Source: a virus (taxonomy: Duplodnaviria > Caudoviricetes). From it: DNA of 64,000 bases. Position numbers and translations under genes: made by a program. Location of the stretch: positions 1-64,000 of IMG/VR virus record IMGVR_UViG_3300014019_000011. One strand, written 5' to 3'. The notes beneath the pieces are model-generated. The model did not search any database, had not been told where the DNA came from, and worked only from the letters and a program-made list of their open reading frames with translations. Numbering within the stretch: position 1 is the stretch's first letter; the number at the start of each line of letters is the position of its first letter. This document shows positions 1 through 46,248 of the stretch, piece by piece.

Positions 1-207
1 ATGAGCGACATCACTGACACCGAGTGGCAGCTCCTCGTACACTACTACGGTGATCTGGCTTACGAGGAGCCCCACAACCATCAACGGTTTCTTGACGCGA
101 TCTATGCGCAACATGGTAGCGTCAACGCGCTGGTCGACAAGGCTATGGAAATCATGGGCCGTGTCCCCGACGCGCCGCCCGATCCCGGTGACGAGATGCC
201 TGAATGA
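1..207 (+). CDS. Hypothetical protein (68 aa)
   Basis: ORF starting at base 1, followed immediately by a terminator hairpin. Confidence 0.5.
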   Translation: MSDITDTEWQLLVHYYGDLAYEEPHNHQRFLDAIYAQHGSVNALVDKAMEIMGRVPDAPPDPGDEMPE

Positions 208-209
208 AG

Positions 210-235
210 AAGCCCGCCAGATCGGCGGGCTTTTC
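210..235. terminator. Intrinsic terminator between convergent genes
   Basis: AAGCCCGCC-agatc-GGCGGGCTT followed by TTC. Confidence 0.75.
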
Positions 236-236
236 G

Positions 237-806
237 TTATCCTAGTTTGAACCGGTTCTCGATGGCGCGTCTGAGGACGGCCTCGTCTCTCCAGCGCCGA
301 TGATCGAATGACGGACGCGGAGAACGGTCGTTCGCTGGAACAGGGCTATGCACGCCGACAACCGGCACGCCGTCGATCTGATGGCGCTTGCCGTCTAGGA
401 ACTTCTTCACTTGACCAGGCGAGGCTTTGCCCAACGCATGCAGTTCGTCGTCGCTCATCGACAGCAGGAGCGCCCGAGCTTCCGCCGGCACGGCGGATAT
501 GTCCATGTCGGCACGGTCGTCCTTCCTGGACTTACAGAACTTCCTGACCGTTTCGATACCCGACGGATCGAAGACATGAACGGATGCGGCGGCCTTCTCC
601 CGCGCCTTCTTCATGACCTCGCCGACGTCGGCTCTAGCCATCGTAGGCTCGTAGTGCGGCAGCGGCGTGCCACCGCCGAAAAGCACGCGGAACGGCCAAC
701 TGATCAGGTCGTCGGCGACCTTGCCGATCGTCGGCAGGCTGGACCAGAAATCTTTGCCCATTGTCGCAATCGCCCGCCACGCCGCAGCTATTATTCTTCC
801 TATCAT
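237..806 (-). CDS. Hypothetical protein (189 aa), separately transcribed cargo
   Basis: ATG at 806 with strong AGGAGGGG RBS; separated from the lysis genes by a terminator. Confidence 0.7.
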   Translation of the reverse strand: MIGRIIAAAWRAIATMGKDFWSSLPTIGKVADDLISWPFRVLFGGGTPLPHYEPTMARADVGEVMKKAREKAAASVHVFDPSGIETVRKFCKSRKDDRADMDISAVPAEARALLLSMSDDELHALGKASPGQVKKFLDGKRHQIDGVPVVGVHSPVPANDRSPRPSFDHRRWRDEAVLRRAIENRFKLG

Positions 807-862
807 GATGTTCCCCTCCTGTGGTGAGTGAGGAAATCGTCTCCGACGATCACGCAAGCAAC

Positions 863-889
863 AAAAAAAGGCGGAGCCGAAGCCCCGCC
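863..889 (-). terminator. Terminator ending the late/lysis operon
   Basis: Minus strand GGCGGGGC-TTCG-GCTCCGCC followed by T7. Confidence 0.8.
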
Positions 890-992
890 AAGTCATGCCA
901 AGAAAGGAAGATCATGTGTCTGAGGGACAACCACAGGATCAGTATTGATGGTGTCGCCGTCCCATGAAACGCACAATACCGCCGACGAAAAA

Positions 993-1193
993 TCACGGCT
1001 TCCAGCACCCGTTACGCTCGCCCCATTGGTTATGGGTCACGACATCCCGCTTCGTCTCCGTCGACCAGGTCGCGACCTCGGCCTTCGTCGGACGGATCGG
1101 CTGCCATCCGGCGCAAATGCCGCCGCTAGTCGCGCACCCAGCGAGAAAGCTCGCGATCAAGAGCGGCATCGTCCATCTTGCGAATGTTGTCAT
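993..1193 (-). CDS. o-spanin (Rz1-like lipoprotein)
   Basis: Lipobox LAGC, small, overlaps the 3' end of the i-spanin in another frame. Confidence 0.75.
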   Translation of the reverse strand: MTTFARWTMPLLIASFLAGCATSGGICAGWQPIRPTKAEVATWSTETKRDVVTHNQWGERNGCWKP

Positions 1194-1365
1194 TGAGGCG
1201 CTCCTTGTCCCTCAGGGCGTTCAGGTCGTCGGCGACACGCTCGGCCTCGGCGGCGGCTTTTCCCGAGGCGTAGACGCGCCAGTAGGCAGCGGCCACGAGA
1301 GCGGCGACCGCGCTCCATTTCAGCAGGGTCTTGCCGATGGTCGTGGTGAGGAACCAGGTCATCAT
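1126..1365 (-). CDS. i-spanin (Rz-like)
   Basis: Start MMTWFL at 1365 overlapping the holin stop; N-terminal TM then coiled coil. Confidence 0.7.
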   Translation of the reverse strand: MMTWFLTTTIGKTLLKWSAVAALVAAAYWRVYASGKAAAEAERVADDLNALRDKERLNDNIRKMDDAALDRELSRWVRD

Positions 1366-1559
1366 GGGCGGCGGTCCTTTCGGATGCGCAGGTCGCCCGC
1401 GCGGTGGCGGTCGTAGGCGAACCAGCCGAGGTTGATCAGCACGACGGCGGCGCTGGCGAGGGTTTCGATATCGTCGGGCGACAGGCTGGTCTTGGCGAGG
1501 ACCATGCCCCCGACGAGCGTGATGGCATGGCGGATGAAGCCGAGTATGGCTGGATTCAT
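1362..1559 (-). CDS. Small two-TM holin-like protein
   Basis: 65 aa, two hydrophobic segments, basic C-tail, between lysin and spanins. Confidence 0.65.
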   Translation of the reverse strand: MNPAILGFIRHAITLVGGMVLAKTSLSPDDIETLASAAVVLINLGWFAYDRHRAGDLRIRKDRRP

Positions 1560-2365
1560 GGCGTGGCTCCTGCGGCGACGGCGGCATAGGCTTCCGCCCG
1601 GTCGCGGTTGATCCGGGATTTGCGGATGAGATGGATGGTGAGGACGACGAGACCGACGGCGACGACGGACAGGATCACGACGGTCGCGGTGTCGAGATCG
1701 GTGATCGTGGCGGCGCTGGTCGTGCTGGTGCCGGAGGCGACAGCGGAAGCACCTGCGGCGCTGTTCTGGGACTTCGAGGTGTTCGTGGCGACCGTGGCCT
1801 CGGCCTCCAGATGGGCCGTGACACCGCGAGCGGATGTCGTGCGGGTCTCAAGCGACATCTTCACGGCATTGGCTTCGACACCCGCGATCCGACGGCTCCA
1901 TCCCTTGCCGAAGGTCGTCCAGGTCTTGAGGCTCTGGACGAACGAAAGGCGGCGGAAACAGATGTCCTTGATGGTTTTGACCGGATCGGCGGACTTGGTT
2001 TTTGCCAGCGTCTGCGGGCCGACCTGACCGTCGGCGGAGGCTCCGACGGATAGCTGGAGCCATTTGGCACCCCGAGACACGCCGGAATTCACGGCAGCGT
2101 CGAGCGTGGCGTAATCGACCCCGGCAGGAAGGTCGTCGTAGCGGACCTTGTCGGCGTACTGGGTGCGATAGATGACATCGACCTCGGTCGACGTGATCTG
2201 CTTGACGGAGCGCGCTGGATATCCGTTCCTCTTGCGGAACGCGTCATAGACGGCCTGCGTCACGCCGAAGTTGGTGGCTCCGCCCGGGTCGAGCTTGTGA
2301 TTGACATATCCGCCTTCGTCACGGCGGATGTGGACCATGGCGTTCGTGTATGTAGATGCGGCCAT
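1556..2365 (-). CDS. Endolysin, glycoside hydrolase family 108 with peptidoglycan-binding domain and C-terminal TM segment
   Basis: EGGYVNHKLDPGGATNFGVT catalytic motif; FGKGWSRR motif; hydrophobic C-terminus. Confidence 0.9.
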   Translation of the reverse strand: MAASTYTNAMVHIRRDEGGYVNHKLDPGGATNFGVTQAVYDAFRKRNGYPARSVKQITSTEVDVIYRTQYADKVRYDDLPAGVDYATLDAAVNSGVSRGAKWLQLSVGASADGQVGPQTLAKTKSADPVKTIKDICFRRLSFVQSLKTWTTFGKGWSRRIAGVEANAVKMSLETRTTSARGVTAHLEAEATVATNTSKSQNSAAGASAVASGTSTTSAATITDLDTATVVILSVVAVGLVVLTIHLIRKSRINRDRAEAYAAVAAGATP

Positions 2366-2899: not shown

Positions 2900-4720
2900 T
2901 CAGGCTCTCCATTTTCCCTTTGAAATCAGAATCATCTGGTAGCTGCCGTTGGCATATTCGACCCCGATCCCATGCGCCCGGTTGTGCGGCCCGACAGCGT
3001 GATCGCCAGCGTCTCCGATATAACCGGACATGGCGAGACGACGGCGGCGCATGACCGTATGACCGTGGGCTATCGATAGATGGAAACCGAGGTTGACGAA
3101 GTTCGTCGCCGCTCCCGAAGAGCCGTTGGTGCCGCGGTCGCCGTGGCAATGGTAGTAGTAGCGGAAGAAACGAAGCGGATCGGCGAACCGGGAGGTCTCG
3201 AACTTCACCGTCGGATTGAAGAGCCGCAGCGCGTAGGCCAGAGCGCTGAAATCGGTGTCTCCTGCGCGGATGGCCTGAAGCTGGGCAAGGTTGACCTGAA
3301 GGAATGTCTCGGCATTCAGGAGGTCACGCTTCCAGTCGGTTTCCAGCAGGAACCGGTCGAAATGGCGGTCGTGATTGCTGTCGATCAGCCAGGTGCGGCG
3401 GCGCTTCGACCCCATCTTCTCGATGAGATCGGCAGTGAGCTTCAGTTCCTCGGCGACATTGTCGTTCCCCGAGATGCGCTTGCGAAGCTGGTGGACGGGG
3501 TTCTTCCGGTTATGCGGCGACACCGAGCCAGCGTCGAAGACATCGTGCAGGACCTGCTCCGACGGATCGAGAGCGTCCATCAGGGCTACACCGCCCTTCG
3601 GCTTGCTGCCGATGCCCCAGATCGCCGACAGGCATGCCTCGTTGGCGAGACGGGCATGGATGCACCCGGCGTTCACGACCGGCCGCTTCAGGCAGCGTTC
3701 TTCCTGAAAGACCTTGCGAGGCCGCACGATACCGTCGGATACCACGACATCCACATCCCACAGCTCGCCCGTCAGGGGATCGAGTTCGAGGTTGCGGATG
3801 TGGATATCGCCGTCGAGATCGCATTCGACGACGACGGCACCGATGACATGGTTTTCGATGGCGACCATGCCCGCCTTGGAATGGGAATAGTTGGGCACCG
3901 TGATCGCGCCGGAACACTGTGCGATGCTCTGCTCGCCCTCGATGCGGCCCAGCGTGATCATATCTTGTCGCATCGACGCAAAGACATGGTTCCTACCGCC
4001 GCAATAGGCACCGATGCCGTCGAGCGGGTTCTCGTAGGTCGGCTTCATGGGAAATGCGCCGTCGATGACCACGCCGCCGAGATCGATCCTGTCGGTGCTG
4101 ACGTAGCGTTCGGTGAGCGCCGACCAGGGGGCGATTTCGTCGACCTTTGAGCCGCCCGACGGCGGCTTCGTCTCCATGCCCATGAGGTGGATGGAATACC
4201 CGCCCCATCCGGCATAGGCGACCATCGACATGAGCGCGGGGCCGTGGACAGGCGTATGGCTCTGCTGCGTCGATATCACGACACCCCACTTCTTAGGGCG
4301 GGGCTTAGGCGCGTCGACACCGATGAGGAGGTCTTCGTAGGCTTTAGGCCCGGTCCATTCGGGCGGCCAGACGATGCCTGGATCGTGGATGACCTTGACG
4401 GTGCGGGGATTGCCCTTGCGGTCGGTCTCCTCGATCCGCTGCGGCGGATTGCATTCCCGATCCCACCCGCGCCAGTTCGTTAGGTCGGTCGCCTCGGAGC
4501 GCCTGAAGGAGACTTCGGTCGGCACGATGTCCGGGAAATCGGCGGGTTGCGGTTCGGAAATGACCGGCTGTTCCGGTCGGCGAAGGTGTTCGAGTGCCGA
4601 TCTGGCCTCCCGCTCGGTCCATCCGAGCTTCTTCGCCAGAGCGCGCCTCCCGAGGTCGTGATGACCGAGTTCGGCGACGATGGCAGCGCGTTCCGCTGCC
4701 GTGGATATGGATGCTTGCAT
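2900..4720 (-). CDS. T5 A1-like metallophosphoesterase-fold nuclease with N-terminal HTH
   Basis: Motifs GCIH, HDVFD, SNHD, HGDRGTNGSSG, AHGH in A1-family order; 606 aa. Confidence 0.7.
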   Translation of the reverse strand: MQASISTAAERAAIVAELGHHDLGRRALAKKLGWTEREARSALEHLRRPEQPVISEPQPADFPDIVPTEVSFRRSEATDLTNWRGWDRECNPPQRIEETDRKGNPRTVKVIHDPGIVWPPEWTGPKAYEDLLIGVDAPKPRPKKWGVVISTQQSHTPVHGPALMSMVAYAGWGGYSIHLMGMETKPPSGGSKVDEIAPWSALTERYVSTDRIDLGGVVIDGAFPMKPTYENPLDGIGAYCGGRNHVFASMRQDMITLGRIEGEQSIAQCSGAITVPNYSHSKAGMVAIENHVIGAVVVECDLDGDIHIRNLELDPLTGELWDVDVVVSDGIVRPRKVFQEERCLKRPVVNAGCIHARLANEACLSAIWGIGSKPKGGVALMDALDPSEQVLHDVFDAGSVSPHNRKNPVHQLRKRISGNDNVAEELKLTADLIEKMGSKRRRTWLIDSNHDRHFDRFLLETDWKRDLLNAETFLQVNLAQLQAIRAGDTDFSALAYALRLFNPTVKFETSRFADPLRFFRYYYHCHGDRGTNGSSGAATNFVNLGFHLSIAHGHTVMRRRRLAMSGYIGDAGDHAVGPHNRAHGIGVEYANGSYQMILISKGKWRA

Positions 4721-5134: not shown

Positions 5135-6574
5135 CTATTCGAGGGCGGCGATCCTGGTTTCGTGGTCGGCCAGCGTCGACTGGATGCTGGAAAGCGTGCC
5201 GGCGATCTTGTTGAGAGCAGCCTGAAGACTCGCATGGTCGAAGAACGGGTCCATGAAGCCGAGATCGAGCTTTACCTTGTCGGCGGCGAGATTGCTGGCG
5301 GCAATCGGCGCGACCGTGTCGGCGATCTGGTTGAGAGCGGCCTGAATATCGGTGCCGAGGAAGTACGGGTCCATATAGCCGGGATCAAGGGCGACATTCG
5401 CCGCCGGGATGTTCTCGATATCGATTGAGGACACGTCTTCCGCAAGCTTGTTGAGCGCTCCCGCAAGGCTCGTGCTGGTGAAATAGTCGTCCATAATGTC
5501 GAGATCGAGTTTCACCAGCAGAGCGGGGAATTCGGTGATCGTCTCGTCGATACTCTTGAGACTGTATCCGATGGATACGAGAGCTTCCTGCACATCGTCG
5601 CCGCTGACGCTCCATGCGCCGCCCGGATATGCGATATCCGCCGCCGTCAGGGAACCGCCGCCACTACCCGGTTCGATGGCATCGATCTCTCCCTTCAGCT
5701 CGGCCAGGACCGCCTGCACGTCCGTACCGGTGATTCCGCTGATGGCTGTGACCGCGATGTCGGAGGCATCGGGAGACCCGCCGCCGCCCGGAATGTCGGA
5801 AATCAGGTCCCTGAGTTCCTCGAGCGCATCCTGCACGTTCGAGGAGGTCATGCCCCAGATCGATTCAACGTCGATGTCCAGAGCGTCCGGCGTACCGATA
5901 CCGTCGATCCTCGTGTCGAGCTGACCAAGCGCGCCCTGAACGTCCGTGGCCGTGATGGAACCGACCGGTTCCACGGCGATGTCCGCGGCATCGGCCGAGA
6001 TGTCGTCCGTTCTGGCCGCCAGTTCGTTCAGGGCAGCGTCGACGGAGGTGCCGAGGAGACCGGACGCGGTGTTGTCGAACTGGACGTTCTCGGCCGTCAG
6101 CTCGTCGCCGAGCTTGACCGCGAGTTCCTCCAGCGCCTCCTGCATGGTCATCGCGTTCAGCCCGGTGTCGCCCGGATCGAAGGCGATCGATGTCGCGGCG
6201 TTCGAGCCGAGGAGCGCCCAGTAGCCGGACATGAGGTCCGTGTGGAAGTCGTCCGAGTCGTGGGGAACACGACACAGGTAGGTGCCGCCCTCGTGGGTGA
6301 CGATGTGCCGGGTCGTGTAGTCGACCCCGGTCAGCCACTCGCCGACATCCGTCAGCATGGACGGAAACGGCACCTGGCCGATGGTCTCGCCCTCGTCGTC
6401 GAGGAACCGGAGGAACTGCCCCGTGTCGTCGTCGATCAGGTTGATGGCGGCGACCGAAAGAACACCTTCGTAGGCCTCGTTGAGAGCGTCTTCGATGACG
6501 GTCCAGTTGTCATCGACCTCTTCCTTGCTGAGGGGACGGTCGACGGTCGAGTATTTGGTCAATGCTATCGTCAT
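5135..6574 (-). CDS. Tail fibre-like protein with CBM5/12-like module and about 9 repeats
   Basis: GEW..GVDY..RHIVTHEGGTYLC motif; repeated A.DI....G....DVQ.AL.EL; ends HETRIAALE. Confidence 0.7.
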   Translation of the reverse strand: MTIALTKYSTVDRPLSKEEVDDNWTVIEDALNEAYEGVLSVAAINLIDDDTGQFLRFLDDEGETIGQVPFPSMLTDVGEWLTGVDYTTRHIVTHEGGTYLCRVPHDSDDFHTDLMSGYWALLGSNAATSIAFDPGDTGLNAMTMQEALEELAVKLGDELTAENVQFDNTASGLLGTSVDAALNELAARTDDISADAADIAVEPVGSITATDVQGALGQLDTRIDGIGTPDALDIDVESIWGMTSSNVQDALEELRDLISDIPGGGGSPDASDIAVTAISGITGTDVQAVLAELKGEIDAIEPGSGGGSLTAADIAYPGGAWSVSGDDVQEALVSIGYSLKSIDETITEFPALLVKLDLDIMDDYFTSTSLAGALNKLAEDVSSIDIENIPAANVALDPGYMDPYFLGTDIQAALNQIADTVAPIAASNLAADKVKLDLGFMDPFFDHASLQAALNKIAGTLSSIQSTLADHETRIAALE

Positions 6575-7323
6575 GGTGTTTCTTCTCCTTCTCCGCCGTC
6601 GCCCGTGTCGCCGCCGTCATCGTCTCCGCCTGTGTCACCACCGCCTTCATCAGGCGGCGGATCGCCGATGATGACCGGGCCTCCGCCCGTGCCGCCCCCC
6701 GGGGTGCCACCTGTGCCGCCGCCGGGATTGTTTGGATCGGGGGGCTCGGGGTCGGCCTCGTATTCAAGGTCCTGCTTCGTCGGATAGCCGGGGTCTTTCC
6801 ACGGCTGGCGCTCCGACGACCAGAGAAAGCCGAACTCCCAGACCGTCATGTAGGATTCGGGCAGGTCGATTTCGGGCGGCACGCCACCCGGATAATACCA
6901 GGCACCAGAGTTCGGATCGCCGCCGATCTGCCCGAGCATCTGGGGCTTGCCGCCTTTGCCCGAGCGCTCCGCATCGTCGACGTTCTCTTCCATGGCCGCC
7001 ATGCCAGCGAACAGTTTTCCGTTCGCTCGAGGGTGTCGAAAGTTGACACGCCTCGACTCCGTCTTCAGCGCGTTGAGAAGATCGCGAACCCTGGTCGGAC
7101 TGCCCTTGATGAGGCTTTCCATCTGGCGCGCCTTCGGCGCCTTCTTGTTCTTGTCATACTTGTGAGGGCCGCCGCCGACCGCCGTAAGCCATGTGGCCAT
7201 CTCGTCCCGATGGATATTGGACATCGGGATAGGGTCGGGCTTCGGAGGCTTCGGAGGTTTCCTCTTCGGAACCTTCTTCTTGTCCTCAAGCGCCGTAGTT
7301 CCCGTGTACTTCTTCACGACCAT
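6571..7323 (-). CDS. Tail-associated hypothetical protein, Lys/Pro-rich N-terminus and Gly/Asp/Pro-rich C-terminus
   Basis: Stop overlaps the fibre gene start (ATGA); lies in the tail tip module. Confidence 0.65.
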   Translation of the reverse strand: MVVKKYTGTTALEDKKKVPKRKPPKPPKPDPIPMSNIHRDEMATWLTAVGGGPHKYDKNKKAPKARQMESLIKGSPTRVRDLLNALKTESRRVNFRHPRANGKLFAGMAAMEENVDDAERSGKGGKPQMLGQIGGDPNSGAWYYPGGVPPEIDLPESYMTVWEFGFLWSSERQPWKDPGYPTKQDLEYEADPEPPDPNNPGGGTGGTPGGGTGGGPVIIGDPPPDEGGGDTGGDDDGGDTGDGGEGEETP

Positions 7324-7327
7324 GGCA

Positions 7328-9304
7328 TCAGCCTCCGAAAGCCAGATCGATGTCCTTGCGTGCGGTCACCGTCGTGCCGGTGATTTTCACCTTGCGCTCG
7401 ATGATGTCCGTGTTGGAAAGGGATCGCATCCGGATGTTGTAGGTTGTGGGGATCGCCGCGACGGCCTCCAGGGCGTTGCCGTACACGAGCTGGGTCCGTG
7501 CGGCAGCGCGGAGCTGGTCGCCGATGGTGTTCGTCCAGTTCACGGCGACGCAGGCGTAGCCGGGGTATTTGAGCCACTCGACCTTGACCGGCGTGGACAC
7601 CTTCTCGCCGCCGACCGTGTATTGCATGTCGCCGACCGTGTAGCCGACCCCGTCGTCATCGGCCCACGAATAGCCCGTCTCGAAAGCCTCGCTGTAGGCC
7701 GTGCCGCCTTCGGGCAGCGTGTCGACGTTGCCGTTAGCGACGGAAACGCCGATGGTGACCTCGACATATCGCTCGCCCGTGTCGCCGGACCAGACCTTGG
7801 AATACGAGATGACCTTGCCGCGCACCCAGCCGCCGGCCGCGTCGAAGAAGTAGTGTTCGATGCGGCAGCCGTCGCGCAGGCTGATGTCGTGGAGGTCTTC
7901 CCATCTACCGCGGAAGGTCACGGTCAGGGCGCGAAGACGATGGCGAAGGAAGGCGCGCACGCGCAGAAGGCCGTGTTCGGCGATCTGACGACCACGGTCG
8001 GTTCCGAAGAAGGTCGCGGCGGACTTGTTCTTGAGCGCCACGTTCTTCGTCGTCTGGACCCACCGCTTCATGAACGGTTTGATCCGGCTCTCGTCATAGC
8101 GGGCATAGTCGTCGAGGACGGTCTGGAACTGGTCCGTCGACGTATGGTCCTGCTGACAGAGCCACGCACGGTTTCCGCGAAGCACCCTGTCGCCGACATG
8201 GTATTCCTTCTCCTCCTCCCATTGCGGGGTCGAGGTGTCCTCGGTCAAGGAGTTCAACCCGATGTCGTCGAGTTCCTCTTCCTTCCACCCGAAGGCGTTC
8301 ACGTCCTGAACGTCGGCGGAGGCCGTGATTGCCTGAATTTCGCGGCGCGGCTGGCTGTAGCTGTACCGCATCGGGAAAGAGGTCGCCTTGTAGCGGTAGA
8401 GCGCGAGAGGCTGAACACCGTAGCGGGTGCGGACGTAGCTCTTCCAATAGGGCTGCCCGGTTCCGTCGAAACCCTGACGGATTTGGTGCAGAACGATCTG
8501 GTAGTTGCCGTTGAAATACTTCGTCTGCGTGAGCGTCGGCTCTTTCTCTTCCTGCTCCACGTCGCCGACGCTCCAGCCGGACTGGTCGATCTCGCCCTTC
8601 TGCCCGATCGAGGACACGTCCGTCAGAGTCAGGCGGCCGAGTTCCCCGCCGCCGAAATTGACGCGACTGGCGATATCGACCTCGCCCTCGGCGCGCTGGG
8701 TCCACTCGGCGACGAAGTTCATGGTGCATTTGCGAACCGGCGGCTGGCCGAGCGATGGCACCATGGTGTCACGGACATAGTGCGGGCCGAGATCGACCAG
8801 CCGGTCGTAATTGATGATGTCCGAGAGCGTGATCTCATGCGTCACGGGATCGATATGGAAGACTTCGGACCGGGCTTCCAGCACGACGGCGGGATCGGTG
8901 ATTTCCTGAGGAAGGCCGGAAATGAGGTCGTCGACATACGGACGGGTCGCCAGAGTGCGCGCGAAAGCGAGGAGCAGCTCCTCGAAATCGTCAGGCTGGG
9001 CGAGGAATTCGAGGGTGATCAGCGCCTCGGCGAGGTTCGCGGGCATGCTGTTCGCCACGCCGCGGAAGATCAGCCGAGGTGTCTCGCCTTCGTCGGCCCA
9101 GCTTACGAGCATGTACGGATCGCGACCGGGCGCTAGGATGCCGATACCCGGATTCTTGCAGGTGATCGTCAGGCGAGCGACCCCGCCTTCCTCGTGATCG
9201 AGCTTGTAACTGGTGGCGATCAGCTCGGTGCGGGCATGCAGGACGGGGTCGAAAACCGTGTCGATGGCCGGAACCCAGGCGTTGTAGATGCGTGATGCCA
9301 TCAA
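7328..9304 (-). CDS. Tail tip/hub protein with CBM5/12-like insertion
   Basis: Position two genes after the tape measure; PQWEEEKEYHVGDRV...WLCQQDHTS motif. Confidence 0.65.
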   Translation of the reverse strand: MMASRIYNAWVPAIDTVFDPVLHARTELIATSYKLDHEEGGVARLTITCKNPGIGILAPGRDPYMLVSWADEGETPRLIFRGVANSMPANLAEALITLEFLAQPDDFEELLLAFARTLATRPYVDDLISGLPQEITDPAVVLEARSEVFHIDPVTHEITLSDIINYDRLVDLGPHYVRDTMVPSLGQPPVRKCTMNFVAEWTQRAEGEVDIASRVNFGGGELGRLTLTDVSSIGQKGEIDQSGWSVGDVEQEEKEPTLTQTKYFNGNYQIVLHQIRQGFDGTGQPYWKSYVRTRYGVQPLALYRYKATSFPMRYSYSQPRREIQAITASADVQDVNAFGWKEEELDDIGLNSLTEDTSTPQWEEEKEYHVGDRVLRGNRAWLCQQDHTSTDQFQTVLDDYARYDESRIKPFMKRWVQTTKNVALKNKSAATFFGTDRGRQIAEHGLLRVRAFLRHRLRALTVTFRGRWEDLHDISLRDGCRIEHYFFDAAGGWVRGKVISYSKVWSGDTGERYVEVTIGVSVANGNVDTLPEGGTAYSEAFETGYSWADDDGVGYTVGDMQYTVGGEKVSTPVKVEWLKYPGYACVAVNWTNTIGDQLRAAARTQLVYGNALEAVAAIPTTYNIRMRSLSNTDIIERKVKITGTTVTARKDIDLAFGG

Positions 9305-9829: not shown

Positions 9830-9833
9830 GATG

Positions 9834-13427: not shown

Positions 13428-13430
13428 GTA

Positions 13431-35993: not shown

Positions 35994-36076
35994 TTTCGTT
36001 CCCCTCTATCCGCCTTGATGGCGGTTACCTGATATTGTGGTGTGGTTTCCGCCGGCGCAAATCGCCGGCCGGAATG

Positions 36077-38027: not shown

Positions 38028-38217
38028 CGGCCATCCCCTGTAACGCCGTGAATACACGATGTAACGCCGTGACGATGCAAGTGACCAACGCCGACGGCGG
38101 AACCGGTCAGGTCATGACGGCCAATAATGTAGACGATATGAGACGCAACGGAGGATAATGTCGCATCTGCAAGACATTGTGTAAGCCGTTGAAATCGGCT
38201 CGTTTAAGTAGACTCGC

Positions 38218-38580
38218 CTAGTTTCCCGCCGCTCTACTGAAAAACCTCGGCTTCAGTTTCCGGGCAAGACCCTCTGGTGCATCCTGATCGTGGCTGAAGA
38301 CCTCGGCCAGAACCTGACGGATCGTGTCGGCTCCATCGCCATCGGTCGCAAGGATGTGGAGGGCTGCGTCGCAGAGCGCGTCCCGAACGTGCTGTCGGTT
38401 CACCGGTACGATGCCGCTCGCCAGATCGGCCTCCACCTTCGCCCGGGTCTTCGTCACGGCGGCACCGTGATACTTCAGCCGCCGCCCGGACGGTAGCTGA
38501 CGGATCGGGGTCGGACGGTGGGCTTCGTCGATCATTTCGGCGAGGAGCTGGATTTCGTAGTCTGCCATGTCGAGGTCCAA
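38218..38580 (-). CDS. Hypothetical protein
   Basis: ORF divergent from rep; start uncertain (38568 or 38580). Confidence 0.5.
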   Translation of the reverse strand: MDLDMADYEIQLLAEMIDEAHRPTPIRQLPSGRRLKYHGAAVTKTRAKVEADLASGIVPVNRQHVRDALCDAALHILATDGDGADTIRQVLAEVFSHDQDAPEGLARKLKPRFFSRAAGN

Positions 38581-38764: not shown

Positions 38765-38807
38765 CGCGTACGCACGTACGCGCGCGCGTGCACACGCGCA
38801 CACACAT
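38765..38807. repeat. 43-nt perfect pyrimidine-purine alternating tract
   Basis: CGCGTACGCACGTACGCGCGCGCGTGCACACGCGCACACACAT. Confidence 0.9.
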
Positions 38808-38819
38808 TTAGAATTACCT

Positions 38820-39125
38820 CCGAATCCGCGATTCTTTTTTGAGGAAAGGGCTTATGTCGAGCGGATTTGTAAACAGTTTAAAAACCCATAAACCCCGGAT
38901 TTCATTCCCGTCAACAAACTTTGAAAACCCATAAACCCCGGATTTTCAGCTTAACACCCCATGTTTTGTATTCGGCGGTTATTATCTCTTAATATCCACC
39001 GTGCTTTCTGGTTGTGGAGATTTAAGAAACCCGCGTCATCTCTTGATTATTCATTAACACCCCTAGCTGTATTAGGTGTGTGGATGTTAATAATATCCTA
39101 TTGCTTCAAGTATTATGGATTTTAA
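38820..39125. promoter_or_regulatory. Putative plasmid-type replication origin
   Basis: AT-rich; 22-bp direct repeat at 38881 and 38924; TTAACACCCC at 38951 and 39054; three 2-mismatch DnaA-like boxes; directly upstream of rep. Confidence 0.7.
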
Positions 39126-39184
39126 ACTTGCATGAGGCTCCGCCGGCAGCAATTCTATTTGTAGAAACCAGATAGAGGGGCACC

Positions 39185-40783
39185 ATGCTTACGCAACCAA
39201 ATCCATTCCGGCCATCGACGAGAGGAGACCTTTCGGCAGCCCTCAAGAAGCGGAAATCGCTGTCGGTCATCGGACCGCAGTCACCGCGCCCGCCCGAGAT
39301 GCTTTCGGGCATTTCCGTCGTCAGAGGCGCTGAACATCTGACCTCGTCTGATCTGGCCCTGCATGATCTCCTCATTTCGAGGGCATACGAGAGCGACCCG
39401 ACCATGTCGGCGAGTTCCTACGAAATCCCGCTTGGTGAATGCCTGCGCTTCATGTGGTCCGATGCCCGGGAGGAGGATGTGACCGCGTCGATGCGGAGAA
39501 TGGAGCAGGTCAGGCTTTCGTTCGATGGCGAGGAAGGCCGCACGTTCAAGGAGGTGCCGATGTTGACCTCGTGGGCGGCCGTCAGGGGCGAAGACGTCGA
39601 CATGGGGTATCAGTTCCCCGATCCGATCCGCTACCTGCTGCGCAACATGCCGAGCTACGGATACATCGAACTGGCCGCCATTGGTCAGGGCCGCATGCGC
39701 TCCAAATATTCGCAGATGCTCTACAAGCGCCTGGCGCACGAGGTCAGCCTTCGTCGGTGGCAATCCGGTGCAGATAACAGCTTCACGCTGGAATTCACGC
39801 CTGCTGAACTCGCCGATCTCGTTGGCTTCTCCACGACCAACAAATCGCTGTTCTCGAAGCTTCAGGAAAGGGTGATCTCTCGATTCAACGCTGACTTCCT
39901 TGGCGTTCAGAAGTTCGATTTGAGGATTACCTACGACGGACGGCCGGAACCGGCGCGAGGTCAGGGTGTAAGCACCTCGCTGATACAGCTTCACGTCAAG
40001 GTGCATCCCGACACCCATCATTCGGTTCACTGCGACGACAGGCGGCTGAAGCCCAGCGCTGATCGTATCGGCAGGCCGGATATTGCCCGATACCGCTTGA
40101 ACTCCGTGTTCTGGCTACAGGTCGCGAAGAAGTTCAAGCTTCTGCATCTGACGCACGAATCAGCATACTGGGCATGGAGCGTGGCTCTCAACGAGGCCAT
40201 TGAGGGCGCGCCTTTGACTTCCGGTTACCAACGCCGATACCGCGGGGAAAACCTTCTTGGGGCCATCGACGCGAACGGTGTCGAGGCCGCCGCCTGGCGC
40301 TTCTTCGGCGAGGAACACGATCTAGGGGCGGACCTCTGCAACTCCACGCACGTTATGAAGCATCTCGGGGCAGCCGACAGAAACCGCCTGAAGAGGCTGT
40401 CCGCCAAGACGAAGGGAAAGGCCAAAGCAAAGCCTTCCGCCACCGTCATGTCTCCGGACGTGGTCGACCCGGTCGAACCGGTGATTGTTTCGGCGCGCCC
40501 GACATTCGAAACATGCACACACGTTGACATCGAGATCGACCACGCCGTCAGCGCTGCCGATCTCGACGACTATGTCCACGCTACCATCAGTCGGGAGACC
40601 TGGAACGGAAACCGAAAGGTCCGGCTCCGCGCATACTACCGGGTGCCCGGAACGACGGTCAGACAGCACTTCGGCTTCTGGATCAGTCCCGCCGACGAGA
40701 GTGAACTGCTCTCTGCCCTCAGGAGGCTCGACAAATGGATGACGGACACCCCCACCTACAGAATTGAAGACAAGGACGCGTGA
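39185..40783 (+). CDS. Replication initiator, Rep_3/RepB-like tandem wHTH with C-terminal extension
   Basis: DLALHDLLI, YQFPDPIR.LL, YGYIEL...MRSKYSQMLYKRL pattern typical of Rep_3 initiators. Confidence 0.75.
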   Translation: MLTQPNPFRPSTRGDLSAALKKRKSLSVIGPQSPRPPEMLSGISVVRGAEHLTSSDLALHDLLISRAYESDPTMSASSYEIPLGECLRFMWSDAREEDVTASMRRMEQVRLSFDGEEGRTFKEVPMLTSWAAVRGEDVDMGYQFPDPIRYLLRNMPSYGYIELAAIGQGRMRSKYSQMLYKRLAHEVSLRRWQSGADNSFTLEFTPAELADLVGFSTTNKSLFSKLQERVISRFNADFLGVQKFDLRITYDGRPEPARGQGVSTSLIQLHVKVHPDTHHSVHCDDRRLKPSADRIGRPDIARYRLNSVFWLQVAKKFKLLHLTHESAYWAWSVALNEAIEGAPLTSGYQRRYRGENLLGAIDANGVEAAAWRFFGEEHDLGADLCNSTHVMKHLGAADRNRLKRLSAKTKGKAKAKPSATVMSPDVVDPVEPVIVSARPTFETCTHVDIEIDHAVSAADLDDYVHATISRETWNGNRKVRLRAYYRVPGTTVRQHFGFWISPADESELLSALRRLDKWMTDTPTYRIEDKDA

Positions 40784-40784
40784 C

Positions 40785-41807
40785 ATGACGACGAGACTCC
40801 CAGCCGACCATTACCGCAGCCTGCACGAGAAGTCGCACGCCGCCATCCTCGTGACCGTAGAACAATCGCTATCGCGCGAGGACGGCCTCGCCGTCGTGGA
40901 GGCCGTCGAAGCCTATCTCGAGGCCACCGGCGATGTAGATGACATGCGTCCGCTCTGGATCAAATTCGAAGACTTCGAAACGGTTCGTGCGCATTCCCTG
41001 ATGCCCTTTTTCTCGCCTGCCGACAGGACGTTTCTAGGAGAGCTGATCAAGGCCATTCCTGCCGCCGACAAGTTCAATCTGGTAACAGAGTTCGATTTCG
41101 AGGCGCGTCAGTACCCCAAGCGCAAGGCAGCCGTTCCGGAGGTCGCCAAGATGCCGACAAGGAGGTCTGCATCCACAGGTGAGGAATACCTGAACGAATG
41201 GCCGCTGAAGCTGCGTTTTCTCGCTACCGAAGAGGCCAGGCGCGAGGCGCACAAGCTCGGAAGCATCTACGAGCGCTGGCCTTTTGTAAACTTCACCGCC
41301 GCCGACCTGAAGGAGACTTCCGACCGACGGGTGCGGGATTTCGAGGAGCTATATCCCTTGCTCGCGCGGGCGGACCGCCTGATGTCCAACAAGATTACCC
41401 GGGTGATTTCGGCCCTCGGCAGGCATCCGCATGCACCTGTGTGGGAGCGCAAGCGGTTCTGGGGGACCGTAAAACTCGGAGGGGTCATGCAATGGGAGAC
41501 CTTTGCGGACGATCTCCTCGCCGAAATCGAGGCAGGACGGACTGACCGGTTCCGCCTGCTTGATCGCCATGAAGAAGAACCGGAGACCGCTGCGGAGAAG
41601 ATCATCCTGCGTGATGTCGCCAGAACCGGTGGCAAGGCTAACCGCGCCCGCCCGCTTTGTCCGCCGTCGGTGCCAGATCAACTTTGGAACCGTGTTCCCG
41701 ATGACCGGAAGCAGGAGGCCATCGAATACGCGGCCCGAAAGCTGATCCGCGGCATTCACCCGGAAGACGCTTTCGAGGAATTCGTGTCTTCGATCGCACT
41801 CCGTTAA
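40785..41807 (+). CDS. Hypothetical protein co-transcribed with rep
   Basis: ATG 2 nt after the rep stop. Confidence 0.7.
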   Translation: MTTRLPADHYRSLHEKSHAAILVTVEQSLSREDGLAVVEAVEAYLEATGDVDDMRPLWIKFEDFETVRAHSLMPFFSPADRTFLGELIKAIPAADKFNLVTEFDFEARQYPKRKAAVPEVAKMPTRRSASTGEEYLNEWPLKLRFLATEEARREAHKLGSIYERWPFVNFTAADLKETSDRRVRDFEELYPLLARADRLMSNKITRVISALGRHPHAPVWERKRFWGTVKLGGVMQWETFADDLLAEIEAGRTDRFRLLDRHEEEPETAAEKIILRDVARTGGKANRARPLCPPSVPDQLWNRVPDDRKQEAIEYAARKLIRGIHPEDAFEEFVSSIALR

Positions 41808-41981
41808 CCGGAACAACGAAATCCCGCTTGCCGCGTTGACGTCTTCGATCTTACGCGGCATGGTTGCGCCGAAACGGAGATACGCCGAGATGACGAAGAC
41901 CCTGCGAATAGCCGCCTGAACACGAGGATCGCCACCAACCGGTTGGCGAGAAGTTCAGTGCCGTTTGCAGGAGTAGCCGTC

Positions 41982-43976
41982 ATGGCCAGCAAGTCCAAGC
42001 TCAAGTTCGAGCGCGAAATCACCCGTCTTCACGTCGAGAAGTTTTTCGAAGGCCTCGGTCCCGAACCGAAGGGCGTTCACCTCGTCATCATCCCGAACAA
42101 CGGATCGCTGACTCACTGGTATCGCGTCGCCGAGGAATATGTCCGCGATGTCAAGAATAGCCTCGGCGACGGCATGAAGACGGGGTCGAAGGGGACTGTA
42201 GAGGACCTGATTGTCGAAGACGCCGAATTTCGCTTCACCGCCGACAACGGTCCTTCGTCCTTTGCTGTCGATGTCCAGCTCCTTGGCGCGAGCGGCATTG
42301 ACGACCGCTACGAACTCGACACCTGTAGCGTTCTGCTCTCCGGAGAAGGGAACGAAAACCTCGAACATCCCTCGCTGGTGCTCGTCGACAGCCGCACGGT
42401 AGTAGAACTGGACCTCAATCTGATCGTTCAGGCTGCGGCTACCTGCGGCCGCCCCATTACCCGCGTTGAGGCGTGGCGACTGTCGCGCATGCCGCACCGT
42501 CGGCGCAACGTCGCATTCCATTCTCCGCGCCCGATCAGCAAGAGCCACGCACTCCAGGCTAAAGCCGCGACGCTCGAACGCGAGAAGCAGGAAGCCGAGC
42601 GTCTGGAGCGTGAAAAGGCCGAGACCACGAAGCGCCGTCCGGCTGACGTGCGCACGGTTCCGCATGACGTGCCGTATCTCGAAGACATGCATGGCTATGG
42701 CCCCGCTGCCGAATGGGGGCATGAACTCGCCGCGGACATGGAGGACTGGCGCCGCGGCAACATTCGCTGGAACGATGTCGACAACGGTGTCCTTCTGAGC
42801 GGCCCTCCGGGTTGCGGCAAGACGACCTTCGCGAAGTCGCTCGCTCGCTCGCTTGACGCGCATTTCGTCGCTGGCAGCTACAGCTCATGGCTCGGGACCG
42901 GCGACGGCCATCAGGGCAATCTTCTGCTGGCAATGCGGGCGGCGTTCGCGGAGGCCATGAAGCATGCGCCGAGCGTCCTTTTGATCGATGAAATCGACAA
43001 CTTCGTTGCCCGTGGCTCAATCGGCAACGGACGCTCGGATGAGTGGAACCGCGGCGTGGTCAATGGCCTCTTGGAGTGCCTGGACGGCGCTGTCGAGCGC
43101 GAGGGCGTGGTCGTCGTAGGCGCGACCAATGATCCGTCGGGCATCGACACGGCGCTCCGCCGTCCGGGTCGCCTCGACCGCCACATCGAAATCCCGCTTC
43201 CCGATGCCAAGGCGCGTTCCGCGATCCTGCGTCAGCACCTCGACGCTAACATTGACGTGACTTGCCTCGACCGTGAGACGGAAGGCATGTCGGGTGCAGA
43301 CCTCGAACGTGTGGCTCGCGACGCACGCCGCCGCGCACGCCGTGAGCGTGTCGATGTCGGTATCCACCATGTCCGCGCTTCGCTTCCGGTTCGCCAGAGC
43401 CGAACGCCCGCATATCGCCGTCATATCGCCGTCCACGAAATCGGCCACGCGGTCGTCGCTGTCGCAACCGGCAGCCGTGTGCGCGAGGTTTTTGTGGAAC
43501 CCGACTTCGTCGCGGACCAGCCGAGCCACATCGCTGGCGCGGCGGTGGTCAGCATGCGCGAGGGTATCCAGGACTACCAGTGGCATATGGACCGCGTCGC
43601 GCACTGCCTCGGCGGTCTGGCCGCGGAGAAAATGATCTATGGCAGCCACAGCGACAGCGTCTCCGTCGATCTGGTCAATGCGACGAATGCCGCGCGCAAC
43701 GCCCTTGCGAGCTACGGCATGGGCGGCTCGCTGTACTCCCACGGTGTCGCGGGTATGACTGACCTCGCTCGTGCGCAGGATTTCGATCCGGGTCTGCGTC
43801 AAAGCATCGACGGCATCCTGCACGATCAGGCAGCGCGTGCGCGCGCCATTCTCGAGGAACACCGCGAGGCGGTTGCGGAACTCGTCGAGATGCTCCTGCA
43901 GCATCACCGCCTGGACGGTGCGGTCGTGCATGAAGTCGTCGCACGCCCGCGCCGTCAGTTGGCCCTTGCGATCTAA
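41982..43976 (+). CDS. Soluble FtsH-like AAA+ ATPase with M41 metalloprotease domain
   Basis: GPPGCGKT, LLIDEID, ATN...D.ALRRPGRLDR, HEIGH, GGLAAE, SVDLVNAT; no TM; AGGAG RBS. Confidence 0.9.
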   Translation: MASKSKLKFEREITRLHVEKFFEGLGPEPKGVHLVIIPNNGSLTHWYRVAEEYVRDVKNSLGDGMKTGSKGTVEDLIVEDAEFRFTADNGPSSFAVDVQLLGASGIDDRYELDTCSVLLSGEGNENLEHPSLVLVDSRTVVELDLNLIVQAAATCGRPITRVEAWRLSRMPHRRRNVAFHSPRPISKSHALQAKAATLEREKQEAERLEREKAETTKRRPADVRTVPHDVPYLEDMHGYGPAAEWGHELAADMEDWRRGNIRWNDVDNGVLLSGPPGCGKTTFAKSLARSLDAHFVAGSYSSWLGTGDGHQGNLLLAMRAAFAEAMKHAPSVLLIDEIDNFVARGSIGNGRSDEWNRGVVNGLLECLDGAVEREGVVVVGATNDPSGIDTALRRPGRLDRHIEIPLPDAKARSAILRQHLDANIDVTCLDRETEGMSGADLERVARDARRRARRERVDVGIHHVRASLPVRQSRTPAYRRHIAVHEIGHAVVAVATGSRVREVFVEPDFVADQPSHIAGAAVVSMREGIQDYQWHMDRVAHCLGGLAAEKMIYGSHSDSVSVDLVNATNAARNALASYGMGGSLYSHGVAGMTDLARAQDFDPGLRQSIDGILHDQAARARAILEEHREAVAELVEMLLQHHRLDGAVVHEVVARPRRQLALAI

Positions 43977-43987
43977 GGGAGGGTCAG

Positions 43988-44524
43988 ATGTTCGTGAAAA
44001 AGTTCTACGTCAGCGACACCCACTTCGGCCACGCTCTCATGCTGACGTCGGGAGACCGGCCGTTCCGCTCAACGGACGAGATGGACGAAGCAATGATCCA
44101 CCGCTGGAACACCGCTGTCGGCGATAATGACATTGTGTATCACCTCGGTGACTTCTCCATGGCTCTCGGCATCGAGGATCGCGTTCGCGGGATTTTCCAC
44201 CGGTTGCGCGGGCGCAAGTACCTGATCCTCGGAAACCACGACTACCGCAAGCCGAATGTCGTCCACCCGACGCTGGCGGGGCTGGAATGGGCCGCGCCGC
44301 CGACCCCGGCGCTGGAAACGACCGACGAGGGCCATCGCGTCTTTCTGAGCCACTACGCTCATCGTGTATGGCCGGGATCGCATAAAGGTTCGTTCCACTT
44401 TTTCGGTCATTCTCACGGTGCGCTACCACCTCTAGGTCGCAGTCGCGATGTGGGCGTGGATTGCCGTGACGTGGCCTTCAATCCGAAGACATTCGCGGAG
44501 CTGACGAAAGGGATGAGGAAATGA
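43988..44524 (+). CDS. Calcineurin-like metallophosphoesterase
   Basis: SDTHFGH, HLGDF, GNHD, SHY, FFGHSH. Confidence 0.9.
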   Translation: MFVKKFYVSDTHFGHALMLTSGDRPFRSTDEMDEAMIHRWNTAVGDNDIVYHLGDFSMALGIEDRVRGIFHRLRGRKYLILGNHDYRKPNVVHPTLAGLEWAAPPTPALETTDEGHRVFLSHYAHRVWPGSHKGSFHFFGHSHGALPPLGRSRDVGVDCRDVAFNPKTFAELTKGMRK

Positions 44525-44808
44525 CCGGCGAAGAACTGAACAACATCTACGGCAATATCATCATGCCGGATGCGACGGTCGCGGTGCCTGCTCAGTGGAT
44601 GCCTGCCGTCCACGAGGCCTTGCAGGCGCTGCATGACCTTCCGGGCAGCGTGCGTGCATTCCTCATCGTCACGGGTTTCGGCGAAGAGAACGGCCATCTG
44701 GTCGTCGAGATGGTCGCGTCGACGCAATACATTTCCGCCGACGGCATGGCCGCGATCGCATCGATCGTGGAGAGGGCGCAGGCCGCCGTCCTCGCGCGGA
44801 GGCACTGA
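44521..44808 (+). CDS. Hypothetical protein (possible truncated paralog of the next gene's N-domain)
   Basis: W.P.V..AL...V...GEE.G.L pattern. Confidence 0.6.
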   Translation: MTGEELNNIYGNIIMPDATVAVPAQWMPAVHEALQALHDLPGSVRAFLIVTGFGEENGHLVVEMVASTQYISADGMAAIASIVERAQAAVLARRH

Positions 44809-45419
44809 TGCGCTTGGAATACGATCTCGAAATCCGAGACCTGTCGTGCGGCATTGTTCGCGATGGCCTCGGGATGGATATCGGCGACGGTTGGCGTGAG
44901 ATTGCGGTTGATGCCATCGGTCGCCTGGCGGAGGTGTCGCACGGTCGCCTCCGGGTGGACAGGGTCGGCGAGAAGTGGGGTATGCTCAACATCCGACCTC
45001 TTGCTCGGGGTCTCGGCGACGATACGATCCGCGCGATCTTTGAGATCACGTCGACGGCCAGATCGCGGTCGTCCGATGTCTGCGAACTCTGCGGCCGTTT
45101 CGGCGAAATCCGCCGTGCCGGTTGGCACCGGGTTCGTTGCGACGATTGCGAGAACGAGCATGTTCGCCGTCGGCAGTTTGAGAGCGGAAATCACAAGGAT
45201 ATCGACGAGGCGGTCGGGTACTACGTCCGCGTATGCTTGGAACACGGACGATTGTTTCCGGTCGCCAACATCGTCATGCAGGCGTGGCCCGATGACACCG
45301 ACCGACGGTTCTTCCTCGACGAGGTCAACGATGTCGTCGGCTGGTGGCGTGCTGGCATGCAGCACCGCCATCTCGACGAAAACCTTCGCGAGGAGTTCCG
45401 AAGCCTCCGCTTTCGATAG
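44808..45419 (+). CDS. Conserved phage hypothetical with zinc ribbon
   Basis: GDGW...EKWG.L...CELCG...GW...CDDC. Confidence 0.7.
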   Translation: MRLEYDLEIRDLSCGIVRDGLGMDIGDGWREIAVDAIGRLAEVSHGRLRVDRVGEKWGMLNIRPLARGLGDDTIRAIFEITSTARSRSSDVCELCGRFGEIRRAGWHRVRCDDCENEHVRRRQFESGNHKDIDEAVGYYVRVCLEHGRLFPVANIVMQAWPDDTDRRFFLDEVNDVVGWWRAGMQHRHLDENLREEFRSLRFR

Positions 45420-45539
45420 CGGTCGTTACTGAATCTAAGAAATAGGAACAACCGACAGAAATCTCGCCGGCGAATTAGCGCCGGCGGAAAACCGAACACA
45501 TCATCGTTGTCAGAACCATAACAAAAGGGGGATGGCACG

Positions 45540-46085
45540 ATGGGAACGACAGCAACAAAGAGATGGACCGCCGACGAGGACATGACGATCCTGTCGATGT
45601 GGGAGGAAGGGGCCAACATCCTCGACATCGCCCGCTCGGTCGGCAAGAGCTATGGTGCCGTACAGACGCGCATCCACCGCAAGGGCTGCGGCAAGCAGGT
45701 CGGTTCCAACACGATCAAGCGCCAGCGCTGGACGGTCGAGGAGAACGACCAGATCGTCGCCATGCGCCGTCTGGGCAAGCCGTATCATGAGATCGCCAGC
45801 GCGCTAGGCCGGACGGAGGTCGCGCTCATGTCGCAGGCGATGCGCCTCGGCATCACGACCGATCCGAAGACGGCTCTGCCGACCAAGACCCTGCCCAGGG
45901 ACTCCAAGCCTTCCAAGGGCAATATCTCGCGATACGACCGCCAGGGGCGTGAGAACTCACGGCAGGCGGGCCAGAAGGCGATCAGACCATGCATCACGTG
46001 CAAGGAGCCCTTCATGTCGGAATGGATCGGCAACCGCATGTGCCAGCCTTGCAAGAACCGGACGGAGGAATACGGGGACGGTTGA
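45540..46085 (+). CDS. Regulator with two Myb/GcrA-like HTH domains and a C-terminal zinc finger
   Basis: RWT.DED/RWT.EEN repeats with IA..LGR...A; CITC...F.SEW.GNRMC..CK. Confidence 0.75.
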   Translation: MGTTATKRWTADEDMTILSMWEEGANILDIARSVGKSYGAVQTRIHRKGCGKQVGSNTIKRQRWTVEENDQIVAMRRLGKPYHEIASALGRTEVALMSQAMRLGITTDPKTALPTKTLPRDSKPSKGNISRYDRQGRENSRQAGQKAIRPCITCKEPFMSEWIGNRMCQPCKNRTEEYGDG

Positions 46086-46153
46086 AGCCGAATCCAGACC
46101 TCGAAATCGGGGTCTTGAATTCCCTGTGGATGGGCAGCAAACTTGAAACTAGC

Positions 46154-46193
46154 TGACCCCAGACTGACCCTGACCCGAAAAATAGCTGGGTCA
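46154..46193. repeat. TGACCC x3 plus one inverted copy near the att core (candidate integrase arm sites)
   Basis: 46154, 46165, 46171 direct; GGGTCA at 46188. Confidence 0.5.
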
Positions 46194-46248
46194 GGATGGC
46201 GATGGCACCGCCAAGGTGTTGATTTTGCTGATGTCTGTCTTGGGTTTT

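Follow-up and report, generated by a model that had tools for sequence, protein, structure and literature searches.

We analyzed a 64,000-nucleotide stretch of DNA (the window), which comprises bases 1-64000 of the 81,415-bp IMG/VR record IMGVR_UViG_3300014019_000011, a caudoviricete virus record classed as a provirus. Bases 1-46248 belong to a single mobile element, here termed element A, which an initial annotation had taken for a phage-plasmid, i.e. a lambda-type siphovirus that replicates from a Rep_3 plasmid replicon. Our analysis points to a different lifestyle: element A is probably a temperate siphovirus prophage that was integrated at tRNA-Lys(UUU) by its own integrase, with the Rep protein acting as its own replication initiator. 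Of the earlier reading, the combination of a virion gene set with a Rep_3 initiator and an operon coding for an FtsH-like protease and a helix-turn-helix (HTH) protein stands. The plasmid lifestyle does not, in view of the integrase, the direct repeats of a tRNA half, the adjoining host genes and the lack of a partition system.

Element boundaries and the integrated state

The record begins at the start codon of an open reading frame (ORF) and finishes at a stop codon, as if it had been excised along gene borders from a contig of greater length; the Rep protein of the window is itself recorded on a 287-kb contig. The sequence to the left of base 1 was reached via a 68-residue protein encoded at window positions 1-204, which led to a locus (L006) from a 175-kb contig of assembly GCA_032067245.1. 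Window 1-10207 and L006:10001-20207 show 0 mismatches over the 10,207 shared bases, and L006 adds 10 kb leftward. Element A extends 4.6 kb into this added sequence, and bases 1-46248 of the window are only its larger part.

At the right end, the initial annotation had noticed a junction with a tRNA attachment (att) site, and this was borne out: positions 46249-46296 are 100% identical to the 3' 48 nucleotides of the Sinorhizobium tRNA-Lys(UUU) on the minus strand (full reference tRNA-Lys(ttt), L015:3005-3080), with the CCA end pointing left and the truncated end pointing right. ARAGORN found no tRNA in the record. At the far left end of element A lies a second tRNA-Lys half-copy (L006:5360-5410), which forms a direct repeat with window 46243-46293 (48/51 positions match). 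To its left come host genes coding for DsbD, a membrane transporter, a flavin monooxygenase, an alcohol dehydrogenase and an ABC transporter. Element A is hence flanked by direct repeats of a tRNA half within contigs of 175 and 287 kb.

Directly to the right of the left att, 2.7-4.4 kb left of base 1, is a 542-residue ORF (P0029), which matches the integrase family phrog_1 over residues 43-488 (E 1.3e-14). Precomputed Pfam assignments give nothing for it and only a faint Arm-DNA-bind_3 match is seen; the tyrosine recombinase boxes TGQR, HDSRR and H..Y are legible by eye. It has no detectable similarity to the integrase of the neighboring prophage (element B, see below) or to those of the relatives of element A, and the four species genomes with a member of the Rep family yielded no homolog. 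The heptamer CTGACCC occurs in four to five copies between the left att and P0029 (L006:5555-5630) and in four copies packed into 42 bp immediately interior to the right att. Its window-wide count is at chance level, and the clustering alone is striking; we read the two clusters as the putative arms of one phage attachment site (attP).

From these sequence comparisons, element A is a prophage of ~50.9 kb bounded by att repeats and equipped with its own tyrosine integrase, and the 81-kb "provirus" of IMG/VR is two tandem prophages minus the integrase arm of element A. Because the record merges two prophages and drops this arm, its CheckV completeness estimate of 89% is not meaningful. The alternative of one continuous 81-kb prophage was discarded in view of the tRNA half-site in mid-record, the two complete and unrelated structural gene sets and the two integrases.

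The initial annotation had further reported that bases 1-46248 encode no CI/S24-type repressor, O/P-type replication proteins, primase, ParA/ParB or integrase, and family searches confirmed this. When the entire 81-kb record was searched in six frames, matches to HTH_3, Peptidase_S24 and the sole PF00589 integrase all lay beyond 74 kb, ParB (ParB_N) had no match and ParA had none above cut-off; a lone 17-bit P-loop match to CbiA is located in element B. No par genes were found among the scanned ORFs of element A. A conventional integrase, cI and replication module just outside its view had been named by the annotation as evidence that would refute a phage-plasmid. Of this module the integrase does lie left of base 1, as does the second tRNA-Lys half, and neither cI nor a second replication module was found in the left arm by Pfam and PHROG scans. 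The integrase arm also holds a divergent gene pair coding for proteins of 173 (minus strand) and 75 residues (plus strand) with a gap of ~140 bp (L006:7967-8857, ~1.1-2.0 kb left of base 1). Its layout resembles a repressor/Cro or an excisionase pair, and neither protein matches Pfam or PHROG.

The genomic setting of the Rep relatives was also examined. The family is small: we recovered 28 matches in a set of 5.8 billion proteins and, with a family profile, 165 clusters (E <=1e-3) among 1.84 billion representatives, mostly of 480-680 residues. In the four species genomes with a family member, the gene lies deep within contigs of 0.2-1.3 Mb. Overall, the relatives either lie in contigs whose length ranges from 70 kb to 1.3 Mb or carry the provirus label, as does the sole IMG/VR relative, and no small independent replicon was seen among the stretches examined. 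One close relative, L008, is a 50,398-bp Logan contig that has the gene order of the window and breaks off within the tRNA-Lys core. Close relatives keep a block made up of a ~120-residue gene on the minus strand followed by Rep, a partner gene, an FtsH-like AAA protease and a phosphoesterase, and distant ones keep its core of small divergent gene, Rep, partner and AAA protease. In five relatives (L011, L013, L014, L017 and L021) a tyrosine integrase follows within a few kb of the Rep operon; this is the very order (Rep operon, att, integrase) obtained when element A is circularised through its att sites.

These data bear on the proposal that element A is normally a plasmid and only accidentally joined to the chromosome here, which we regard as most improbable. 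Such an element would be expected to couple virion genes with a plasmid-type initiator, as is the case, and bases 1-46248 indeed hold no integrase. It would, however, hardly come with a dedicated integrase beside the left att, putative arm-type repeats on both arms and boundaries at which a tRNA half is precisely repeated in direct orientation. The integrase-after-Rep-operon order kept in the five relatives and the lack of par genes argue in the same direction.

Several observations nevertheless weigh against an integrated prophage that replicates through Rep. The integrated state is read from sequence contigs and not from copy number or excision, and the left arm is taken from L006, whose assembly, though identical where the two overlap, is not that of the window's own contig. 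A pattern for the attP junction had 0 matches in viral and metagenome contigs, as did the right arm by itself, so that this blank lacks a positive control and carries no weight. No sequencing run contained more than 0.12 of the sampled words, and no RNA run was listed. Neither a tandem iteron array nor a DnaA box was found in the region upstream of rep, which has only two long repeats. Rep heads an operon that diverges from the lytic one, and because no lysogeny repressor is identifiable in element A, either operon may be the one active in the lysogen. Lastly, the sole plasmid copy of the Rep module, on the 130-kb repABC plasmid p3 of Shinella zoogloeoides (NZ_CP093531.1), sits in a partly duplicated region riddled with insertion sequences (IS); because p3 carries the module without annotated virion genes, the module can live on plasmids.

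Some of these points would also fit a dual lifestyle, in which element A integrates at tRNA-Lys and in addition persists as a Rep_3-driven plasmid, like P4 or other "oscillating" elements, the integrated copy seen here being one of its states. The genuine iteron-initiator fold of Rep, its place at the head of an operon diverging from the lytic genes with no CI-type repressor found, an AbiEii toxin that could serve as an addiction gene and the presence of the same module on p3 are all compatible with this, and some elements are noted to alternate between integrated and plasmid states (PMC7969092). We nonetheless consider it unlikely: partition genes are lacking, although the same study expects them in large phage-plasmids, every copy or relative examined lies within a larger contig or the 130-kb repABC plasmid, in six of the relatives an integrase adjoins the Rep operon, and p3 has its own repABC replicon.

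The Rep protein, its putative origin and its operon

The identification of Rep as a Rep_3-like initiator was upheld by a profile search, in which it scores 25.6 bits against Pfam Rep3_N (cut-off 22.4; 23.6 bits in the six-frame search), as well as by its predicted fold. In a model built from 23 family members (predicted local distance difference test, pLDDT, 71), residues ~40-280 match RepE, Pi, domains 2-3 of RctB and the RepA of pPS10. Foldseek retrieved RepE and Pi with E 2e-5 and probability 1.0, and RctB was also matched; VIA-align superimposed residues 40-280 on RepE with Z 8.8 (197 aligned residues) and on Pi with Z 8.4 (211 aligned). By both aligners, the modeled Rep has a tandem winged-helix (WH1-WH2) fold. 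Beyond it, Rep bears an additional helical domain and, at its C terminus, an alpha/beta domain; for residues 300-532 no match surfaced in either fold search, both lists being filled by the winged-helix part. The family profile has no match among PDB sequences, Rep has none in phage records, and there is no PHROG family for either Rep or its 347-residue partner. Exact look-ups gave no record for a 494-residue version of Rep, the 219-residue protein at window 237-896, the protein P0026 or the integrase of element B.

An origin with repeats, diverging from the early genes, had also been proposed, and the AT-rich region upstream of rep fits this description. At 41% its GC content is the lowest in element A, and it holds two 26-nucleotide direct repeats (38877-38902 and 38920-38945) that are 43 bp apart, are absent elsewhere in the window and of which 0 are expected by chance. 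A comparison with L008 is instructive. The flanking DNA is 87-95% identical on both sides, whereas the intergenic region upstream of rep is unalignable, and L008 has its own 17-nucleotide repeat pair with 42-bp spacing in place of that of the window. Within Rep (L008:10001-11593), residues 1-440 are 42-68% identical and residues 441-532 are 95-100% identical, with a sharp recombination boundary at around residue 440. These patterns suggest that the origin and Rep residues 1-440 have been swapped as one specificity cassette between close relatives. Because the boundary of identity falls at ~440, the C-terminal alpha/beta domain is likely to be a separate, partner-linked module. In distant members of the Rep family, the profile match often ends at around position 420-440.

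The partner gave no lead in Pfam, PHROG, NCBIfam, PDB-profile or Atlas searches and has only 4 database homologs. A complex prediction for Rep residues 300-532 and the partner scored 0.34, as against 0.00 for the best of 3 controls, with runs agreeing in at least 32% of contacts and a partner pLDDT of at least 70. The mark used for such predictions is reached by 58/80 solved complexes and 2/110 mismatched pairs, and scores of <=0.60 comprise 7/80 solved complexes as well as both of the mismatches that passed. The prediction thus lends weak support to a contact between the C-terminal part of Rep and the partner.

The next gene of the operon codes for an AAA+ zinc protease that begins with a novel N-terminal region of ~270 residues and in which Walker A, Walker B and HEIGH are all intact. 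No transmembrane segment was seen on inspection of its sequence, and it scores 186 bits, far under the FtsH equivalog cut-off of 600; judged by these features, it is FtsH-like and not FtsH. Further downstream are the phosphoesterase and an HTH_38/GcrA-like regulator. The latter and the helical 120-residue product of the gene diverging from rep are the only candidates for a lysogeny repressor of element A. The structural model of the 120-residue protein is too poor to use (pLDDT 52.6), and in Atlas it belongs to unnamed clusters only. The lysogeny switch that the initial annotation proposed to be built from the FtsH-like protease and HTH proteins is speculative.

We propose that Rep would bind to the repeat pair upstream of its gene, melt the AT-rich region there and recruit the host replisome. 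As element A encodes no helicase, primase or polymerase, it must use host replication enzymes. Residues 1-440 of Rep would set the specificity for the origin, and its C-terminal domain would contact the 347-residue partner, as lambda O does with P. The soluble FtsH-like protease would act on the initiator or on a regulator, either remodeling or degrading it. Remodeling or degradation of initiators is known from host Clp and DnaK systems, which act on P1 RepA, F RepE and lambda O. In a more far-reaching version of this scheme, the operon and its small divergent gene may constitute an undescribed, self-contained module for replication and lysogeny control in alphaproteobacterial integrative phages, with the protease destroying or remodeling the initiator in place of a CI-type switch and with plasmid persistence should integration fail; we rate it as rather unlikely.

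A further explanation, and a very unlikely one, is that the Rep-partner-protease operon is a captured plasmid fragment or an accessory (defense or regulatory) cassette, and that element A replicates through an unrecognised system of orphan ORFs (ORFans) or is defective. Room for such a system could be sought in the many ORFans of the early region and its 1.2-kb non-coding island at 29.5-30.7 kb; the absence of a PHROG family for Rep or the partner and the occurrence of the module without annotated virion genes on p3 are likewise in keeping with a cassette of foreign origin. An accessory cassette is not expected, however, to occupy the same position beside early genes and integrase in all relatives, the distant ones included. 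The swap of the origin together with Rep is the pattern expected of a determinant of replication specificity, and element A has no other replication gene. We accordingly favor Rep as the initiator of an integrating phage.

Late genes, early genes and the tandem prophage

Positions of the features of element A and its neighbor are collected in Table 1. PHROG searches recovered the full set of siphovirus late genes as one minus-strand operon, from the small terminase subunit (TerS) to the tail genes, and a holin and an endolysin are also present; the intact lambda-type late operon of the initial annotation is therefore real. Its inclusion of a spanin gene is also plausible, with a 79-residue candidate that, from its transmembrane segment and coiled coil, looks like an i-spanin. 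Amid the head and tail genes, a 371-residue gene on the opposite strand (17629-18744, plus) has no PHROG family and is possibly a moron or lysogenic-conversion gene.

Table 1. Features of element A and adjoining sequence in window coordinates (., no strand assigned; aa, amino acids)
Feature	Position	Strand	Basis or content
Last of six small left-arm genes	1..207	+	L006 gene table; no Pfam/PHROG match
Lysis cassette	237..2365	-	Endolysin, holin, i-spanin-like protein, 189-aa protein
189-aa protein of lysis cassette	237-806	-	
i-spanin-like protein, 79 aa	1126-1365	-	N-terminal transmembrane segment and coiled coil in translation
Holin	1362-1559	-	Precomputed Pfam Phage_holin_10
GH108 endolysin	1556-2365	-	Precomputed Pfam Glyco_hydro_108
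DNA transfer protein (T5 A1-like)	2900..4720	-	phrog_1745, E 3e-90
Tail module	5135..15622	-	phrog_807, E 1e-30; tape-measure PHROGs, E 1e-19; phrog_14469
Distal tail and fibre genes	5135-9829	-	
Tape measure, 1197 aa	9834-13427	-	Tape-measure PHROGs, E 1e-19
Major tail protein with Ig-like domain	14843-15622	-	PHROG match
Head and packaging	19245..25618	-	TerS, TerL, portal, protease/major-head fusion; phrog_57, phrog_15, phrog_21, phrog_4523
Protease/major-head fusion	19245-21245	-	PHROG match
Portal	21242-22819	-	PHROG match
TerL	23044-25179	-	phrog_15, E 3e-189
TerS	25040-25618	-	PHROG match
Leftward early region	26916..38580	-	Nearly all ORFans
AbiEii nucleotidyltransferase	36583-37548	-	E 6e-7
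120-aa gene diverging from rep	38218-38580	-	Same position in relatives
AT-rich putative control/origin region	38801..39184	.	41% GC vs ~61%; two 26-nucleotide direct repeats
Rep, predicted Rep_3-fold (WH1-WH2) initiator, 532 aa	39185..40783	+	Pfam Rep3_N and fold matches
347-aa partner	40764..41807	+	Start overlaps rep end; follows Rep in all relatives examined
Soluble FtsH-like AAA+ zinc protease	41943..43976	+	AAA, E 5e-30; Peptidase_M41, E 1e-15; FtsH_fam, E 9e-55
Rest of rightward operon	43988..46085	+	phrog_547, E 2e-40; phrog_323, E 4e-14; HTH_38, E 1e-6
Phosphoesterase	43988-44524	+	
95-aa and 203-aa proteins between phosphoesterase and HTH_38 regulator	within 43988..46085	+	
HTH_38/GcrA-like regulator	45540-46085	+	HTH_38
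Putative arm-type repeat cluster	46153..46194	.	Four CTGACCC (three direct, one inverted) beside right att
Right att of element A = left att of element B	46243..46296	-	3' 48 nucleotides of tRNA-Lys(UUU)
Element B, second unrelated prophage	46297..64000, to 81415 in record	-	Own structural genes and integrase

In the leftward early region, no ORF other than AbiEii has a Pfam or PHROG family. AbiEii forms a pair (36077-37548, minus strand) with a conserved overlapping gene of ~230-340 residues that is not a recognisable AbiEi antitoxin; both genes are kept in L008, L011, L014 and L017 and on plasmid p3. A ~14-kb inverted duplication on p3 (L004:25385-39133 and L003:3276-17014) contains phage-like early genes and copies of IS66. 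The duplicated genes code for AbiEii, a methyltransferase, a metallophosphoesterase and a WGR protein, and one of the two copies adjoins the Rep-partner-FtsH-like module. Inside the early operon, 1.2 kb (29482-30691) are devoid of a convincing ORF or Pfam match. Their GC content is 56%, with 300-bp windows of 42-44% just upstream, and the corresponding stretch of L008 aligns at 70-76% only, partly cross-wise between two internal units. Candidate roles, on sequence grounds, are a second origin, an RNA or a regulatory region.

Element B has its own complement of genes for an endolysin, internal virion proteins, a major head protein, a portal, TerL and a primase/helicase (71706-73409), as well as a CI-like repressor with HTH_3 and S24 domains at ~74.9-75.6 kb. 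Its integrase (80207-81415) is the last gene of the record, and by the usual geometry of tRNA integration an intact tRNA-Lys should lie just past position 81415.

Significance and comparison with known systems

The general understanding of temperate phages is unchanged by these results and their significance is modest. They remove a false phage-plasmid candidate, which arose from a provirus call that cut off the integrase arm and merged tandem prophages. The mildly novel part is the operon kept among the relatives, in which a small divergent gene is accompanied by a long Rep, a partner and a soluble FtsH-like protease. The results also delineate a small and unstudied group of long Rep_3-fold initiators linked to the partner and an FtsH-like AAA+ protease. 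As the examined relatives of Rep sit in integrated elements, they allow the use of a plasmid-type initiator by an integrating phage to be tested on a concrete example, and the swapped origin-plus-Rep cassette amounts to a natural experiment for mapping origin specificity.

Among described phages, the closest setting is that of the ~50-kb prophages catalogued at tRNA-Lys in Sinorhizobium/Rhizobiaceae (PMC5537653), which resemble element A (~51 kb) in size and host group, likewise target a tRNA-Lys with a tyrosine integrase and share its siphovirus genes for head, tail and lysis. They differ in that their target is tRNA-Lys(CTT), rather than tRNA-Lys(UUU), and in having a Cro/CI-type HTH repressor and an HTH-type replication protein, both of which are lacking in element A. 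Moreover, the TerL of element A is at most 37% identical to that of any phage record, and when phage and plasmid records were searched by megablast, element A gave no DNA match except the tRNA core and one 45-bp match. Element A thus has no close cultured relative.

The arrangement of the replication genes recalls lambda O and P. In both, the initiator gene runs at its end into the start of a downstream partner gene, the N-terminal part of the initiator is exchanged together with the origin while its C-terminal domain remains constant with the partner, and replication depends on the host replisome. On the other hand, the predicted fold of Rep is the WH1-WH2 fold of Rep_3 and not Phage_rep_O, the repeats of element A lie upstream of rep and those of lambda inside the gene, and the 347-residue partner has no similarity to P or a known helicase loader. 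In its Rep3_N match, WH1-WH2 fold and AT-rich upstream region with direct repeats, Rep resembles RepE of F, Pi of R6K, RepA of pPS10 and domains 2-3 of RctB. Unlike these iteron initiators, it has ~250 extra C-terminal residues, and element A is an integrated phage with two repeats only, no DnaA box and no par genes.

Phage-plasmids such as P1, N15, SSU5 and, in Rhizobiaceae, pLM21S1/RhEph10 share with element A the combination of virion genes and a plasmid-type initiator, pLM21S1 being a known phage-plasmid of Sinorhizobium. Large phage-plasmids are expected to have partition systems and do not need an integrase (Pfeifer et al. 2021, PMC7969092). In contrast, element A is integrated, with an integrase and att sites, lacks a partition system and has a Rep without a match in phage records. 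A further parallel is offered by the Vibrio PLE, which replicates by means of a plasmid-like RepA/iteron initiator. PLE is integrated in the chromosome and undergoes excision and replication (PMC7145576). Both are thus integrative elements, and element A is likewise proposed to replicate with a plasmid-like initiator after excision; PLE differs in being a satellite without virion genes whose initiator belongs to another family, whereas element A is a complete phage.

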